The notes under the pieces are model-generated. The model was not told where the DNA came from. It saw nothing but the letters and a program-made list of their open reading frames with translations, and did not search any database. Positions 4,215 to 26,309 of a stretch of DNA of 64,000 bases are shown piece by piece. Both the position numbers and the translations under genes were made by a program. Positions within the stretch are counted from its first letter, which is position 1. The number at the start of each line of letters is the position of its first letter. Origin of the DNA: Brevundimonas sp. (GTDB lineage: Bacteria > Pseudomonadota > Alphaproteobacteria > Caulobacterales > Caulobacteraceae). Location of the stretch: positions 12,468-76,467 of the forward strand of contig NZ_JBHYGN010000014.1 of assembly GCF_051858995.1 (NCBI RefSeq). Reading direction: 5' to 3'.

Positions 4215-5981
4215 TCAGTCGCGCTCGGCGTGGGCCTTCAGACGGCGATCCAGCACCCAGGCGGCGACTCCGACCCACCCGACCAGGATAACGGCATAGC
4301 CGCGCTCCCACCAGCCGACATTGGCGTCATTCACCGTTCCCGGCAGGACCAGATGGTAGGTGAACAGGGTCAGCACGGCCATGGCCACGAAAACCACGAC
4401 GAGGAACAGCTTGAGCCGCTTCATGTCGACGTGACTCCACAGGCCCCAGAGCAGCAGCAGGGGCGCCAGCTGGATGCCGAGGCCCAGGTTGATGGCCATG
4501 TGGCGCGGGTCCGGCCAGGGGAAGAGGCTGGAGGCCGACAGGCCGATCCCGGCCAGGATGAAGACGATGGCCGTCAGCCCGGCCACGAACCAGCGCCGGG
4601 TCAGGGCGTGGATGGCCAGGCCGAAGCCGACGCCCGCAGCCATGCACATGGCGCCGGCCAGAAAGACGCCGCCGTTGAAGATCAGGGGGATGGGCGCCGA
4701 GGCCCCGCCCAGTTCGCTGAGGTACTGGCGCGCATGATTGAAGCCGGGCCAGGTCGCCACCGCGATCACGACCGCCACGGCGGCCAGCACCGGGGCGGCC
4801 ATGCCGATCCACAGCAGGCGGCGACGGCGATGGTAGCGGGGACGGCCCTCGGGGGGCGGGAAGGGCTTCAGCCCCCAGATCGGACGGATCAGGGGGATAC
4901 GCCGCACGATCTCATAGATCAGCAGGCTGACCCCGAAGGTGATGCCGACCAGCGTCAGGGCCTCGGCGGGCGCGGGCAGGTTGGCCGGGCGGATGAACCA
5001 GACCGCCGCCACCAGGACCGTCTGGTGCGCCAGATAGAGGGGGAAGGTGGCGTCCACCAGATAGGGTAGGGCCGGGCCACGGGTGTTGCGCAGATAACGG
5101 CTGCCGTAGCCGAGGATCGCGGCGATCACGGCCCACTGATCGATAGCGAAGACGATGGCGCGCGGAATCCCGAACCACGTCCCGCCGCCGGGGTGCCACG
5201 CCTGCACCATCATGATCGGCAGGGCGATCAGGGCGACGATCAGGGACTGGTGGCGGCGACGCTCCAGCTCGGCCCACAGCGCCTCGTGCCGAACCATCAG
5301 GAAGCCGAACAGGAAGGCCCCCAGCGACAGGAAGTGGTTGTAGAAGTCCCAGGTCAGCTTGTTGGTGATGCCGAAGATCGGGAACAGCACGATCCGGATC
5401 ACGATCAGATAGACCAGCGGCACGACCAGCACGCGCCAGCCGGCCGTGTGCTTCACCAGCCAGGCCTCGGCCTTCGCCATCAGGCCCGGACGCGTCGTCA
5501 GGCCGATGGTGATCAGGCTGTAGACCGTGATGTAGACGATGAACCACAGGTGATTGACCGGCACCCCGTTGGCCAGGCCCGACGGGCTGAACTCATGCCA
5601 CAGCCAGTCGGCGAAATTGCCGGTGAAGCCGCCCTTGTCGATCGCCTCGACGAAGGACTGGATCGGCACCAGCGCCAGGGCGCCGAACAGTAGCGGCGGA
5701 ATCAGTCGCTCGACGCGGGCGCGCAGGGTCTGGGCCGGGCTGCGTCGGGCGGTCATGAAGCGCAGGGCCGCGCCGGAGACCAGGAACAGCAGGGTCAGTC
5801 GCCACGGATTGGTCAGCAGCAGGGCTTCGTGCAGCCAACTGAAGGTATGGGTGCTGTGGATGTGCCAGTCGTACGGCGCATAGACCAGGGCCACATGGTA
5901 GAGGATCAGCAGGCCGAACGCGGCGACCCGGATCCAGTCCAGGTCGTTGCGACGCGCACTCGGGGCGGGGGGAGCTGACAC
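4215..5981 (-). CDS. OpgC/MdoC-like acyltransferase-3 fused to a C-terminal DUF998-like membrane domain
   Basis: RRNDLDWIRVAAFGLLILYH...W...LLFLVSG (AT3); then YLSELG-containing multi-TM domain; GTG start at 5981. The longer 996-aa ORF extension is a shadow of pntAA. Confidence 0.75.
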   Translation of the reverse strand: MSAPPAPSARRNDLDWIRVAAFGLLILYHVALVYAPYDWHIHSTHTFSWLHEALLLTNPWRLTLLFLVSGAALRFMTARRSPAQTLRARVERLIPPLLFGALALVPIQSFVEAIDKGGFTGNFADWLWHEFSPSGLANGVPVNHLWFIVYITVYSLITIGLTTRPGLMAKAEAWLVKHTAGWRVLVVPLVYLIVIRIVLFPIFGITNKLTWDFYNHFLSLGAFLFGFLMVRHEALWAELERRRHQSLIVALIALPIMMVQAWHPGGGTWFGIPRAIVFAIDQWAVIAAILGYGSRYLRNTRGPALPYLVDATFPLYLAHQTVLVAAVWFIRPANLPAPAEALTLVGITFGVSLLIYEIVRRIPLIRPIWGLKPFPPPEGRPRYHRRRRLLWIGMAAPVLAAVAVVIAVATWPGFNHARQYLSELGGASAPIPLIFNGGVFLAGAMCMAAGVGFGLAIHALTRRWFVAGLTAIVFILAGIGLSASSLFPWPDPRHMAINLGLGIQLAPLLLLWGLWSHVDMKRLKLFLVVVFVAMAVLTLFTYHLVLPGTVNDANVGWWERGYAVILVGWVGVAAWVLDRRLKAHAERD

Positions 5982-11965: not shown

Positions 11966-13069
11966 GTGAACCCGACAGCGCCCCCCGTGAATCCTGCTCA
12001 TCGCCGCTTTGAGGCGCTGGATTCCCTGCGCGGGGTCTGCGCCATCCTGGTGGTCATGTTCCACATGCCGGTGGCCAGCCACTGGCGGGACTGGGGGCTG
12101 ATCCAGCACAGCTATCTGTTCGTCGACTACTTCTTCGTCCTGTCCGGCTTCGTCATCGCCCACGCCTATTCGCAGCGGCTGAAGACGCCGACCGACGCGG
12201 GGCGGTTCATGGTGCGGCGTCTGGGCCGGGTCTGGCCGCTGCACGTGCTGGTGCTGGCGGCCTACATCGGGCTGGAGCTTTGCCGCCTGTGGTTCCACTT
12301 CGACAGCGTGACGCCGTTCACGCGCGACCGGTCGGTGGAGGCGATCTTCTCCAACCTGCTGCTGATCCAGGCCTACAATATCCATCCGTCCCTGACCTGG
12401 AACGGGCCGTCGTGGACCCTTAGCGTCGAGGTCGGCTGCTATGTGGTCTTCGCCCTGCTGCTGCTAGCGACGCCCAAGGTGTGGCGCTGGATCGGGGCGG
12501 CGCTGGCGGTGGTCGGGGCGGTGATCGTCCTGACCCAGAAGGGCTATATGAACACCACCTATGACTTCGCCTTCCCGCGCGCGGTCTACGGCTTCTTCCT
12601 GGGCAGCCTGCTGCAGGGCTGCTGGACCCGCATCCCGCGCCTGAAGGGGCATGCGGCGACGGCGCTGGAGATCGCCGCCGTGATCGGCGTCTGCGTCTTC
12701 ATCGGCTATGCGACCGGGGCGACGACCATTCTGGTGACCCTGTTGTTCGTCGCGGCGGTCTGGGTCTTCGCGGGCGAGGACGGGGCCCTGTCGCGCCTGC
12801 TGGACGCCAAGCCGCTGGTCACCCTCGGGCGCTGGTCGTTCGCCATCTACATGGTGCACATGTTCGTCCTGGTGGTGACCATCATCATCGCCCGCAAGCT
12901 GGACTGGATGCCCGCGCGTCGGATCGACTTCGGCTCGGTCTGGCTGAACGACCTGTTCGGCGTCGGCCTGTTCGGCCTGATCGTCGTCCTGGCCGTGCTG
13001 GCGCACAAATTCGTCGAGCAACCGGCCCAGCGGATGATCGACCGCTGGACCAAGCCGAAAGCGGCTTAA
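11966..13069 (+). CDS. Acyltransferase-3 (OafA/YrhL-like) O-acyltransferase
   Basis: LDSLRGVCAILVVMFH, VDYFFVLSGF, WTLSVE, GRWSFAIYMVH, VEQP. Confidence 0.85.
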   Translation: MNPTAPPVNPAHRRFEALDSLRGVCAILVVMFHMPVASHWRDWGLIQHSYLFVDYFFVLSGFVIAHAYSQRLKTPTDAGRFMVRRLGRVWPLHVLVLAAYIGLELCRLWFHFDSVTPFTRDRSVEAIFSNLLLIQAYNIHPSLTWNGPSWTLSVEVGCYVVFALLLLATPKVWRWIGAALAVVGAVIVLTQKGYMNTTYDFAFPRAVYGFFLGSLLQGCWTRIPRLKGHAATALEIAAVIGVCVFIGYATGATTILVTLLFVAAVWVFAGEDGALSRLLDAKPLVTLGRWSFAIYMVHMFVLVVTIIIARKLDWMPARRIDFGSVWLNDLFGVGLFGLIVVLAVLAHKFVEQPAQRMIDRWTKPKAA

Positions 13070-13287
13070 GCCGCCATCCGGAAGTCCGCGGCCGGATCGA
13101 AGGCCGGACGGGCCTCGTCCCACAGGGCGTCTTCATCGGCGTAGCGGGCCGACTGGCGGGCGTCGATCACGTCGATCACCTGTTCCTCCAGACGATCCCA
13201 GATCACGGCCAGACCGGTTTCGGTGTCGCAGGGAACGATCAGGTAGCGGCTGGCGGCGACCTGGGCGGCGGGTTGGAAGCGGGCCAT
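13066..13287 (-). CDS. Small acidic hypothetical protein (73 aa) divergent from the WYL regulator
   Basis: GGAG RBS before ATG 13287; host-like codons; 4-nt overlap with the convergent acyltransferase stop. Confidence 0.6.
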   Translation of the reverse strand: MARFQPAAQVAASRYLIVPCDTETGLAVIWDRLEEQVIDVIDARQSARYADEDALWDEARPAFDPAADFRMAA

Positions 13288-13342
13288 CTGTGAACTCCGT
13301 GAAGCGTGTGTCGCTGTCGATGAATTGAACTCTAAAACAGCG

Positions 13343-13363
13343 TTGCGTCATTTTTGGTCGTAT
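13343..13363. promoter_or_regulatory. Putative DriD-type binding site
   Basis: TTGCGTC-N7-GTCGTAT, similar to the ATACGAC-N7-GTCGTAT pseudo-palindrome I recall for Caulobacter DriD. Confidence 0.5.
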
Positions 13364-13377
13364 GCTCTGGTCCGGGC

Positions 13378-14367
13378 ATGAGATTTGACAAGGCAGCTCT
13401 GGTTCTGGATCTCGCGCGGCGCATGGCGGCCAGCGCCGAGGGCCTGACCATGGAAGACATGATGCGCGAGACGGGCACGGCCCGGCGCACCGCCGAGCGC
13501 ATCCGCGATGCGGTCGTGGTCCTGTTCCCGCAGGCGGAGGAGGTGTCCGACCCGCCGTTCAAGCGCTGGCGCATCCGTGGCGGCCTGTCGGCCTTCGAAC
13601 AGGCGCCGACCGCCGAGGAGCTTATCGAGCTGACCCGGGCGGCGCAGGGGCTGCGGGCGACCGGGGAGCCGGCCCGGGCCGAGGCGCTGGAGGGGCTGGA
13701 GCGCAAGCTGAAGTCGGCCGTCCGCTCGACCACCCTGAATAGGCTGGCTCCCGATCTGGAGGCGCTGGTCCGGGCCGAGACCCTGGCCGTGCAGGCAGGG
13801 CCGCGCGCCTCCGCCGACGAACTGGTGCTGGCCGAGGTGCGTCAGGCGGTGCTGGCGGGTCAGCCGCTGGGCTTCATCTACAGCCGCCCGGGGGCAGAGG
13901 CGCGGCGTCGGGTCATGACGCCCTGCGGCCTGATGTTCGGGCGCGCCAACTATCTGGTCGCCGCCGAGCCGGAGGGCGGGGCGATCAAGACCTTCCGTCT
14001 GGACCGGATGAGCGCCGTCAAGGCCGAGCCGGGCGTGGCCGTGCCGCCCGCCGGCTTCGACCTGCAGGTCTTCGCGGGCCAGTCGTTCGGCATCTATCAG
14101 GACGCCATCGAGGATGTGGAGCTGAGGATCACGCCCGACGGCGCCGCCGAGGCGCGTGGCTGGCGTTGGCACCCGACCCAGACCGTCGAGGATCTGGCCG
14201 ACGGCGGCGTCACGGTCCGCTTCCGCGCCTCGGGCATGCGTGAACTGGCCTGGCACCTGTTCACCTGGGGTGAGCAGGTCGAGATCGTCGCGCCCGAGCG
14301 GCTGAAGACCGTCATGGCGGAGGAACTGGCCGCCGCCTCCCGCGCCCTCGCGCGGTCGCAAGCGTGA
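13378..14367 (+). CDS. driD: HTH-WYL-WCX transcriptional regulator, DriD-like
   Basis: N-terminal HTH (GLTMEDM...RRTAER), WYL core (YLVA...FRLDRM), C-terminal LAWHLFTWG; ATG 13378. Confidence 0.75.
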   Translation: MRFDKAALVLDLARRMAASAEGLTMEDMMRETGTARRTAERIRDAVVVLFPQAEEVSDPPFKRWRIRGGLSAFEQAPTAEELIELTRAAQGLRATGEPARAEALEGLERKLKSAVRSTTLNRLAPDLEALVRAETLAVQAGPRASADELVLAEVRQAVLAGQPLGFIYSRPGAEARRRVMTPCGLMFGRANYLVAAEPEGGAIKTFRLDRMSAVKAEPGVAVPPAGFDLQVFAGQSFGIYQDAIEDVELRITPDGAAEARGWRWHPTQTVEDLADGGVTVRFRASGMRELAWHLFTWGEQVEIVAPERLKTVMAEELAAASRALARSQA

Positions 14368-26063: not shown

Positions 26064-26309
26064 GTCAGGACCTTGGCTCACCTTCGCAGTTGCAGCAACG
26101 GACGGGAGGGCTGTTGGCGAAAAACAGGGTGTGAACAGTGTAATTGGTGCAGATCGTCCACTTTGGAGAGACGGTCAAAATACACCGTCTAAACCGTCTA
26201 TCCCGTCTATCGCCCCCAACGAAAACGCCGGTCGCTCCGCGAGGAACGACCGGCGATCAGTCTAACAGCCCGATGCGTCAAGATTGGACGTAGGGGGGAG
26301 TTGGGCGCC

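Follow-up and report, generated by a model that had tools for sequence, protein, structure and literature searches.

DriD of Caulobacter crescentus is a WYL-domain activator that responds to single-stranded DNA (ssDNA), and the published consensus for its binding site is ATACGAC(X)7GTCGTAT (PMC10853764). A box of this kind was found in the promoter of driD by Gozzi et al. (2022), who proposed, from its closeness to the driD start, that the gene is negatively autoregulated; moreover, Schumacher et al. (2023) found CGxC-N7-GxCG, with an AT-rich spacer and ~17 nt from the start, ahead of 68 of 69 alpha-proteobacterial driD homologs. Most recently, the complex of DriD, ssDNA and RNA polymerase (RNAP) on the driD/CCNA_03891 promoter was determined by electron cryo-microscopy (cryo-EM): RNAP faces away from driD and, in every class, is oriented toward the divergent gene, CCNA_03891 (Singh et al., 2026; PMC13004042). 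The same study reported that CCNA_03891/CCNA_01149 are induced by zeocin and that this induction is lost in a driD deletion, that a PdriD reporter and the driD mRNA are unresponsive to either DriD or zeocin, and that DriD sites overlap a missing −35 element, with a single fixed spacing to the −10 (PMC13004042). CCNA_03891 itself was called 'a protein of unknown function' (PMC13004042), and a literature search found it mentioned in no further paper. Here, we consider a locus of Brevundimonas sp., contained in a stretch of 64,000 nt (positions 12,468-76,467 of the forward strand of contig NZ_JBHYGN010000014.1, assembly GCF_051858995.1; hereafter, the window), in which a driD homolog and a gene for a 73-aa acidic protein diverge from a short control region (Table 1). 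We consider it probable, at roughly 0.8, that this locus is the Brevundimonas version of the Caulobacter driD/CCNA_03891 bidirectional promoter.

The regulator was termed DriD-like in the original prediction, which was made from the letters of the window; judged by its alignment, it goes beyond this and is a full DriD ortholog. It matches C. crescentus DriD (PDB codes: 8tp8/9pfq; crystal and cryo-EM structures) without gaps across residues 1-323, with an E-value of 4e-100 and 177/323 identities (55%), and Pfam recognizes both the WYL (residues 150-215; E=7e-13) and WCX (residues 245-320; E=2e-15) domains. Only one other WYL protein is encoded in the same genome, on a different contig. The start codon was set by homology to ATG 13378 (MRFDKA...), and the coding sequence in Table 1 therefore begins there; the upstream TTG at 13354, listed by the open reading frame (ORF) finder, was rejected, as translation from it would cross the DNA box and DriD has no equivalent extension. 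Within the recognition helix, the three residues through which DriD reads the box in its crystal structure (Arg37, Glu40 and Arg41; PMC10853764) are identical. Additionally, Arg36, Thr38, Arg43 and Lys62 are retained, and most of the phosphate contacts are identical. In the ssDNA pocket, Tyr168, Arg178 and Tyr192 are identical, and the substitutions R204K and W206F are conservative. For the interaction with RNAP, the residues compared were Ser118, Arg120, Arg121, Arg122, Pro125 and the small residues at 18 and 20: of the contact positions of the three-helix bundle (3HB), Arg122, Pro125, Ala20, Glu21 and Glu128 are kept, and the substitution at position 18 (G18A) preserves a small residue.

The control region contains TTGCGTC-ATTTTTG-GTCGTAT (13343-13363), within which lies the 20-bp DriD-type box; read toward the small ORF, this is ATACGAC-CAAAAAT-GACGCAA, with a perfect left half-site and with the critical CGxC-N7-GxCG core retained. 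The original prediction had this arrangement right in every element, namely a helix-turn-helix (HTH)-WYL-WCX gene and a small acidic ORF with a good ribosome-binding site (RBS), sharing a 90-bp gap with this sequence; the gap is also AT-rich as described, at ~50% GC against 60-80% in its flanks, and the DriD consensus that had been given agrees with the published one (PMC10853764). When up to one mismatch is allowed, TGCGWC-N7-GWCGTAT is matched three times in the window, compared with 0.25 expected, and at least three matches were obtained in 0 of 100 shuffles; the sole exact match is the box itself. It occupies the would-be −35 of the small-gene promoter. When 97 distinct driD-linked promoters are aligned on their boxes, and positions are counted from the box toward the small gene, 96 have A at +11 and 83 have C or T at +10. 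On this alignment, TAGAGT (+10 to +15) is the predicted −10 hexamer; the corresponding positions are occupied by CAAGGT in the published didA promoter and by CAATCT in that of CCNA_03891. Transcription is predicted to start near 13322, with a leader of ~35 nt. A scan of 12900-13500 for sigma-70 promoters and terminators returned neither a −35/−10 pair nor a terminator, the former result fitting expectation, since the promoter would be activator-dependent; an Rfam search of the window gave no match. A conserved TCATCGA block (+21 to +27) was also considered as the −10, and was dropped, since both the invariance of A at +11 and the alignment of promoters across the genome, described below, place the −10 at +10 to +15; the block falls around the predicted transcription start.

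A natural experiment is provided by another Brevundimonas genome (locus L003), where driD and the small ORF are separated by an inserted gene for a 192-aa multi-pass membrane protein. Here, the boxes are duplicated (680-699 and 1419-1438), one for each gene, and the box belonging to the small ORF is followed by CAAGGT at +10 to +15, which supports the assignment of both the box and the −10 to the small-gene promoter. These observations bear directly on the alternative that the box is mainly an autoregulatory operator, through which DriD represses or modulates its own gene, with the small ORF being transcribed from an independent promoter. The distance on which Gozzi et al. based their proposal is similarly short here, the box ending 14 nt from the driD ATG compared with 10 nt in Caulobacter. 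Nonetheless, we regard this explanation as unlikely: driD expression in Caulobacter is flat with respect to DriD and zeocin, all of the cryo-EM classes aim RNAP at CCNA_03891, the A at +11 is fixed on the side that faces the small gene, and the small ORF of L003 retains a private box despite its separation from driD. Autoregulation of driD through the box as a side effect is possible.

The association of the two genes was examined in 74 loci fetched around close relatives of C. crescentus DriD, and in a further 30 loci from whole-genome searches with the small protein, in which weak matches at E ~1e-3 were included. In all 30 of the latter, a driD homolog adjoins the small gene on the opposite strand. 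Moreover, a metagenome scan seeded with the small protein gave 80 loci, 74 of which have a divergent driD 81-147 bp away, and all 74 carry the box; the remaining six end too soon. Conservation of the ORF beside driD homologs, one of the points on which the original prediction had staked itself, is therefore seen in 30/30 genome loci and 74/74 metagenome loci. With a fuzzy pattern, the box was recovered from its orthologous position in ~100 genome loci apart from 4-5, where it is degenerate. Of four full-length loci that were negative by tblastn, three (L023, L098 and L103) proved to have a family member once the divergent ORF was read directly, and the sequence of a further one (L090) stops at a contig end. 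The pair is likewise seen in loci of Caulobacter and of other Caulobacteraceae. The sole exception to the pairing is the fourth, L104, from an unclassified alphaproteobacterial metagenome-assembled genome, where a distant DriD homolog (44-47% identity), with the good box CTACGACCGTTTCTGACGTA (~4650-5000), faces an unrelated 224-aa gene rather than the small protein.

Given that WYL regulators frequently control defence islands, the pair might instead be an anti-phage or mobile-element module of the BrxR/CapW style, with the small protein as a defence or counter-defence effector, and the different partner in L104 could be taken in favour of this. We consider it very improbable. The small gene is present in 18/18 sampled genomes of the genus, each time divergent to driD, and the flanking genes recur in a minority of loci; those beside the pair in the window encode an acyltransferase, a lipoprotein and an isocitrate lyase regulator, all of housekeeping type, and no defence genes are found there. 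Furthermore, four members of the small-protein family gave no PADLOC match, there was no PHROGs family match, and the nearest relative of the regulator is an activator of the DNA-damage response, not one of the repressors. The link to phage suggested in the original prediction was thus not borne out.

The connection between the 73-aa protein and CCNA_03891 is made through locus L032, from C. vibrioides DSM 9893, which has a DriD of 99% identity and reproduces the published promoter sequence; its divergent ORF is the 116-aa CCNA_03891. Comparison of the two families using hhalign aligned residues 4-66 of the short form with residues 41-103 of the Caulobacter form (E=1.5e-5), and a set of bridging loci from intermediate genera (L019-L030) was matched by both small-protein queries. 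The common core of the two proteins comprises ...(L/I)(A/G)V(I/V)W(D/N)xxE(E/D)Q(I/V)hxVhD..., W(D/E)(D/E)A and a terminal R-h-x-A, and in the joint alignment, Trp30 is invariant, with Glu34, Val40 and Asp42 nearly so. The Brevundimonas protein is without roughly the first 40 residues of the Caulobacter one, and an N-terminal unit of a helix and a β-hairpin (Caulobacter residues 11-45) is absent from all of the Brevundimonas-type sequences; therefore, the 73-aa protein would be a short variant of the CCNA_03891 family. An exhaustive phmmer search of 1.84 billion representatives with the 73-aa query yielded 39 proteins, nearly all as short as the query, and did not reach the 116-aa Caulobacter type. 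The original prediction of the small ORF as a DriD target agrees with the published experiment on CCNA_03891, its syntenic ortholog (PMC13004042). It had called this target unknown; the arrangement itself had already been published in Caulobacter, so uncharacterised is the better word.

The genes that follow are much less constant. A TonB-dependent receptor, which in C. crescentus is CCNA_01149 and is co-transcribed with CCNA_03891, lies downstream of the small gene in 35 Caulobacter loci only (L031-L065), and in none from other genera. These receptors are of two types, ~31% identical, that occur in different Caulobacter species, and they are missing from the remaining Caulobacter loci, so the operon partner of CCNA_03891 has been swapped or lost repeatedly. 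The operon with the receptor is thus not family-wide, and it is the small gene that is the constant neighbour of driD. In the window, the small ORF is followed by a convergent acyltransferase-3 gene, which overlaps the stop codon of the ORF.

Sequence conservation shows the 73-aa ORF to be a genuine gene that is subject to purifying selection: the ratio of nonsynonymous to synonymous substitution (dN/dS) is 0.18-0.58 against 13 orthologs, the length is steady across most of the genus (73-80 aa), an alignment of 36 sequences has 30 invariant columns, and conservation extends to the start codon, the RBS and the box. That it might be a decaying, functionless remnant of a 116-aa CCNA_03891-type gene, as the loss of an N-terminal α-β-β unit that is modelled at high confidence in the Caulobacter protein could suggest, is contradicted by this same evidence and is the least probable of the alternatives. 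The protein has a pI of 4.2, with 14 acidic and 7 basic residues. Its highest mean Kyte-Doolittle hydropathy over 19 residues is 0.84, and it therefore has no transmembrane helix, in keeping with the original view that it is not DidA-like. The original suggestion that such an acidic protein could be a DNA mimic or an inhibitor is speculative. It has 442 homolog clusters, all either unnamed or 'hypothetical', the named ones being from Brevundimonas. No match to the small protein was found in Pfam (to E=10), NCBIfam or PADLOC; the best PHROGs hits had E=0.1-0.3, and a sequence search of the PDB gave only a chance match (E=0.57).

In the AlphaFold2 (AF2) model of the 73-aa form, a helix precedes three strands, which are followed by a long acidic helix; the predicted local distance difference test (pLDDT) score is 79-91 for residues 11-40. 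The model of the 116-aa Caulobacter protein has two helix and β-hairpin units followed by short acidic helices, with pLDDT >89 at residues 11-80 and a mean of 77. In Foldseek searches, no match reached E<=0.001, either for the two models in the PDB or for the Caulobacter model in BFVD, the highest-ranking hits being single β-blades of WD40 or KatG proteins with TM scores of no more than 0.38. Of 316 distinct family members, 308 end in Ala; the Brevundimonas tails read MAA, IAA or LAA, and those of Caulobacter LCA, LVA or LYA. Hydrophobic-x-Ala tails resemble the ssrA-type C-terminal signal recognised by ClpX; the near-invariant tail therefore suggests a possible ClpXP degron, and the small protein would be unstable. 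We infer a modulator of the damage response that acts by binding to other proteins and is short-lived, probably owing to degradation by ClpXP. The existence of a natural minimal form narrows the functional part to the β-sheet, the acidic helix and the Ala-terminal tail.

In the mechanism that we propose by analogy with Caulobacter, DriD would be made constitutively and, upon DNA damage, ssDNA would bind to its WYL domain, thereby freeing the winged HTH (wHTH) and 3HB domains. The DriD dimer would then bind to the box, filling the −35 position of the leftward promoter, and recruit the RNAP housekeeping holoenzyme to the weak −10, such that the 73-aa gene is transcribed from ~13322. Its product would be a small acidic cytoplasmic protein with a three-stranded sheet, an acidic helix and a hydrophobic-x-Ala tail. 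Several points weigh against this interpretation. The hhalign probability between the two small-protein families is only 79%, and the orthology consequently leans on synteny and on the intermediate sequences. The N-terminal half of CCNA_03891, which folds with confidence, is missing from the 73-aa protein, whose activity could differ as a result; moreover, the AF2 model of the short form is moderate only, with a mean pLDDT of 68. Three of the seven ssDNA-contact residues of DriD are changed (S172G, K202A and W206F) and, of the three Arg residues through which the Caulobacter protein contacts RNAP, two are replaced (R120L and R121N). Lastly, the degron, like the −10 and the start of transcription, is a prediction, and that the circuit is active in Brevundimonas is likewise extrapolated from its conserved parts.

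Since the small gene is constantly paired with driD, feedback on the pathway is a reasonable guess as to its role. In its specific form, in which the acidic, short-lived, ClpXP-degraded product binds DriD or another ssDNA-handling protein, this idea is rather doubtful. The candidate contact on DriD could be either the ssDNA pocket of the WYL domain or the basic patch that contacts RNAP, and the minimal C-terminal module could suffice in Brevundimonas. If correct, it would render the SOS-independent response adaptive, although DriD levels are constant. In any event, CCNA_03891 and its homologs are the obvious next gene for study of this response.

Table 1. Features of the driD locus in the window and, in the last row, related genes on other contigs of the same genome (contig:position)
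Feature	Position	Strand	Description
driD	13378-14367	+	329-aa wHTH-3HB-WYL-WCX activator; ortholog, by alignment, of C. crescentus DriD (CCNA_01151)
Small acidic gene, 73 aa	13066-13287	−	Putative short ortholog of CCNA_03891, C-terminal module only; product ends ...FRMAA
Shine-Dalgarno GGAG	13295-13298	−	7 nt 5' of the small-gene ATG; kept in orthologous loci
Bidirectional control region, 90 bp	13288-13377	.	Between the two start codons
DriD box, 20 bp	13344-13363	−	TGCGTCATTTTTGGTCGTAT; minus-strand reading ATACGACCAAAAATGACGCA
Predicted −10 hexamer TAGAGT	13329-13334	−	+10 to +15 after the box; predicted from alignment
Paralogous 182-219-aa genes	C5:971, C6:3049, C11:49437, C7:342167, C7:495336, C8:11877		Outside the window

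The 3.3-Mb genome was scanned with a weight matrix derived from driD-linked boxes in other genomes, at a cut-off of at least 18 bits. This revealed 35 DriD-type sites, compared with none in each of three simulated genomes; A is found at +11 in 30 of the 35, and many of the promoters share the downstream consensus YCGGCNTKCCAKACTG. Many of the boxes lie 150-650 nt ahead of ordinary metabolic genes. Compared with the approximately seven sites known in Caulobacter, these ~35 promoters suggest that the DriD regulon can be far larger. A box of this type also belongs to recA, which was located by tblastn (C9:16012-16980, minus strand; outside the window): it carries TGCGTCATTTTTGGACGTAT at C9:17165-17184, one mismatch from the driD box and ~30 nt upstream of a LexA-type box, GAAC-N7-GAAC. 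This arrangement is like the dual control of Caulobacter recA by DriD and LexA.

Some further observations concern the surroundings of these sites. One of the 35 DriD-type sites lies in the window (26274-26293) and has a minus-strand promoter with a −10 of TAGACT at 26264-26259. On the same strand, ~10-50 nt past the predicted start, a strong GC-rich hairpin is followed by GUUUUCG (26215-26255); it lies 55-95 nt after the stop codon of the upstream gene, and the 186-nt leader folds with z=−4.4. From the position of the hairpin, this promoter sits between the gene and its apparent terminator. Beyond it (26187-26210, minus strand), and in copies on other contigs, are three to four tandem 9-bp units of ATAGACGGn or GTGGACnnn, several of the arrays being followed by an inverted copy able to form a hairpin. 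The genome as a whole has 18 arrays of at least three tandem units, and 14 of them are preceded, at 58-615 nt and on the same strand, by a DriD-type box; they are located either in the leaders of ordinary genes or within the 3' end of paralogous 182-219-aa genes. Matches of the array to viral contigs proved to be a false lead, being collagen-like (Gly-Ile-Asp)n coding repeats of low-GC phages. The paralogous genes are six in number (one is frameshifted), and each starts 21-44 nt after a DriD-type box. Their products gave no Pfam matches; the N-terminal HTH is weakly similar to the small terminase subunit (phrog_1206; E=9e-4), and the C11 copy stands alone between an mscL-like gene and putative ORFs, not in a prophage.

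Comparison with more distant systems helps to place the small protein and its regulator. DinI-type proteins are small, acidic, damage-induced modulators with a C-terminal acidic helix, and are offered here solely as a functional analogy: the small protein matches no PDB chain by sequence, DinI structures included, and there was no Foldseek match. The division inhibitors DidA and SidA of Caulobacter are also small damage-induced proteins, and didA is a classic DriD target, but both are membrane proteins, whereas the 73-aa protein has no hydrophobic segment and no detected sequence similarity to either. In the PafBC/RDRM promoters of mycobacteria, as in those of DriD, an ssDNA-activated WYL activator serves promoters that lack a −35, from a site at a fixed distance from the −10. 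However, PafBC is a heterodimer that acts by sigma adaptation and binds near −26, whereas DriD is a homodimer that binds DNA alone and contacts the β subunit of RNAP and the C-terminal domain of its α subunit (α-CTD); the regulators are not orthologous (PafC, E=2.5e-5).

The window locus fits the survey of Schumacher et al., having the CGxC-N7-GxCG core, an AT-rich spacer and 14 nt to the start codon; that survey took the box as part of the driD promoter, without looking at the divergent gene. The closest likeness is to the Caulobacter driD/CCNA_03891 promoter, with which it shares an orthologous regulator, a box beside the driD start, a divergent small gene, the spacing between the box and the −10, and the lack of a −35. 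There are also differences: the spacer of the box is ATTTTTG rather than AGAAACG; the small protein has 73 aa and no N-terminal domain, compared with 116 aa in Caulobacter; and in place of the TonB-dependent receptor that follows the small gene there, an acyltransferase gene converges on its 3' end. The orthology of DriD, the conserved box with its fixed spacing to the −10, and the linkage of the small gene and the selection on it come from the sequences compared here, whereas ssDNA dependence, divergent activation and the absence of driD autoregulation are results from Caulobacter. Given that the regulatory logic was already established in that organism, the locus mainly points to conservation of the circuit in Brevundimonas; what the comparison adds is that it is the small protein, and not the TonB receptor discussed in the 2026 paper, that travels with driD across the family.

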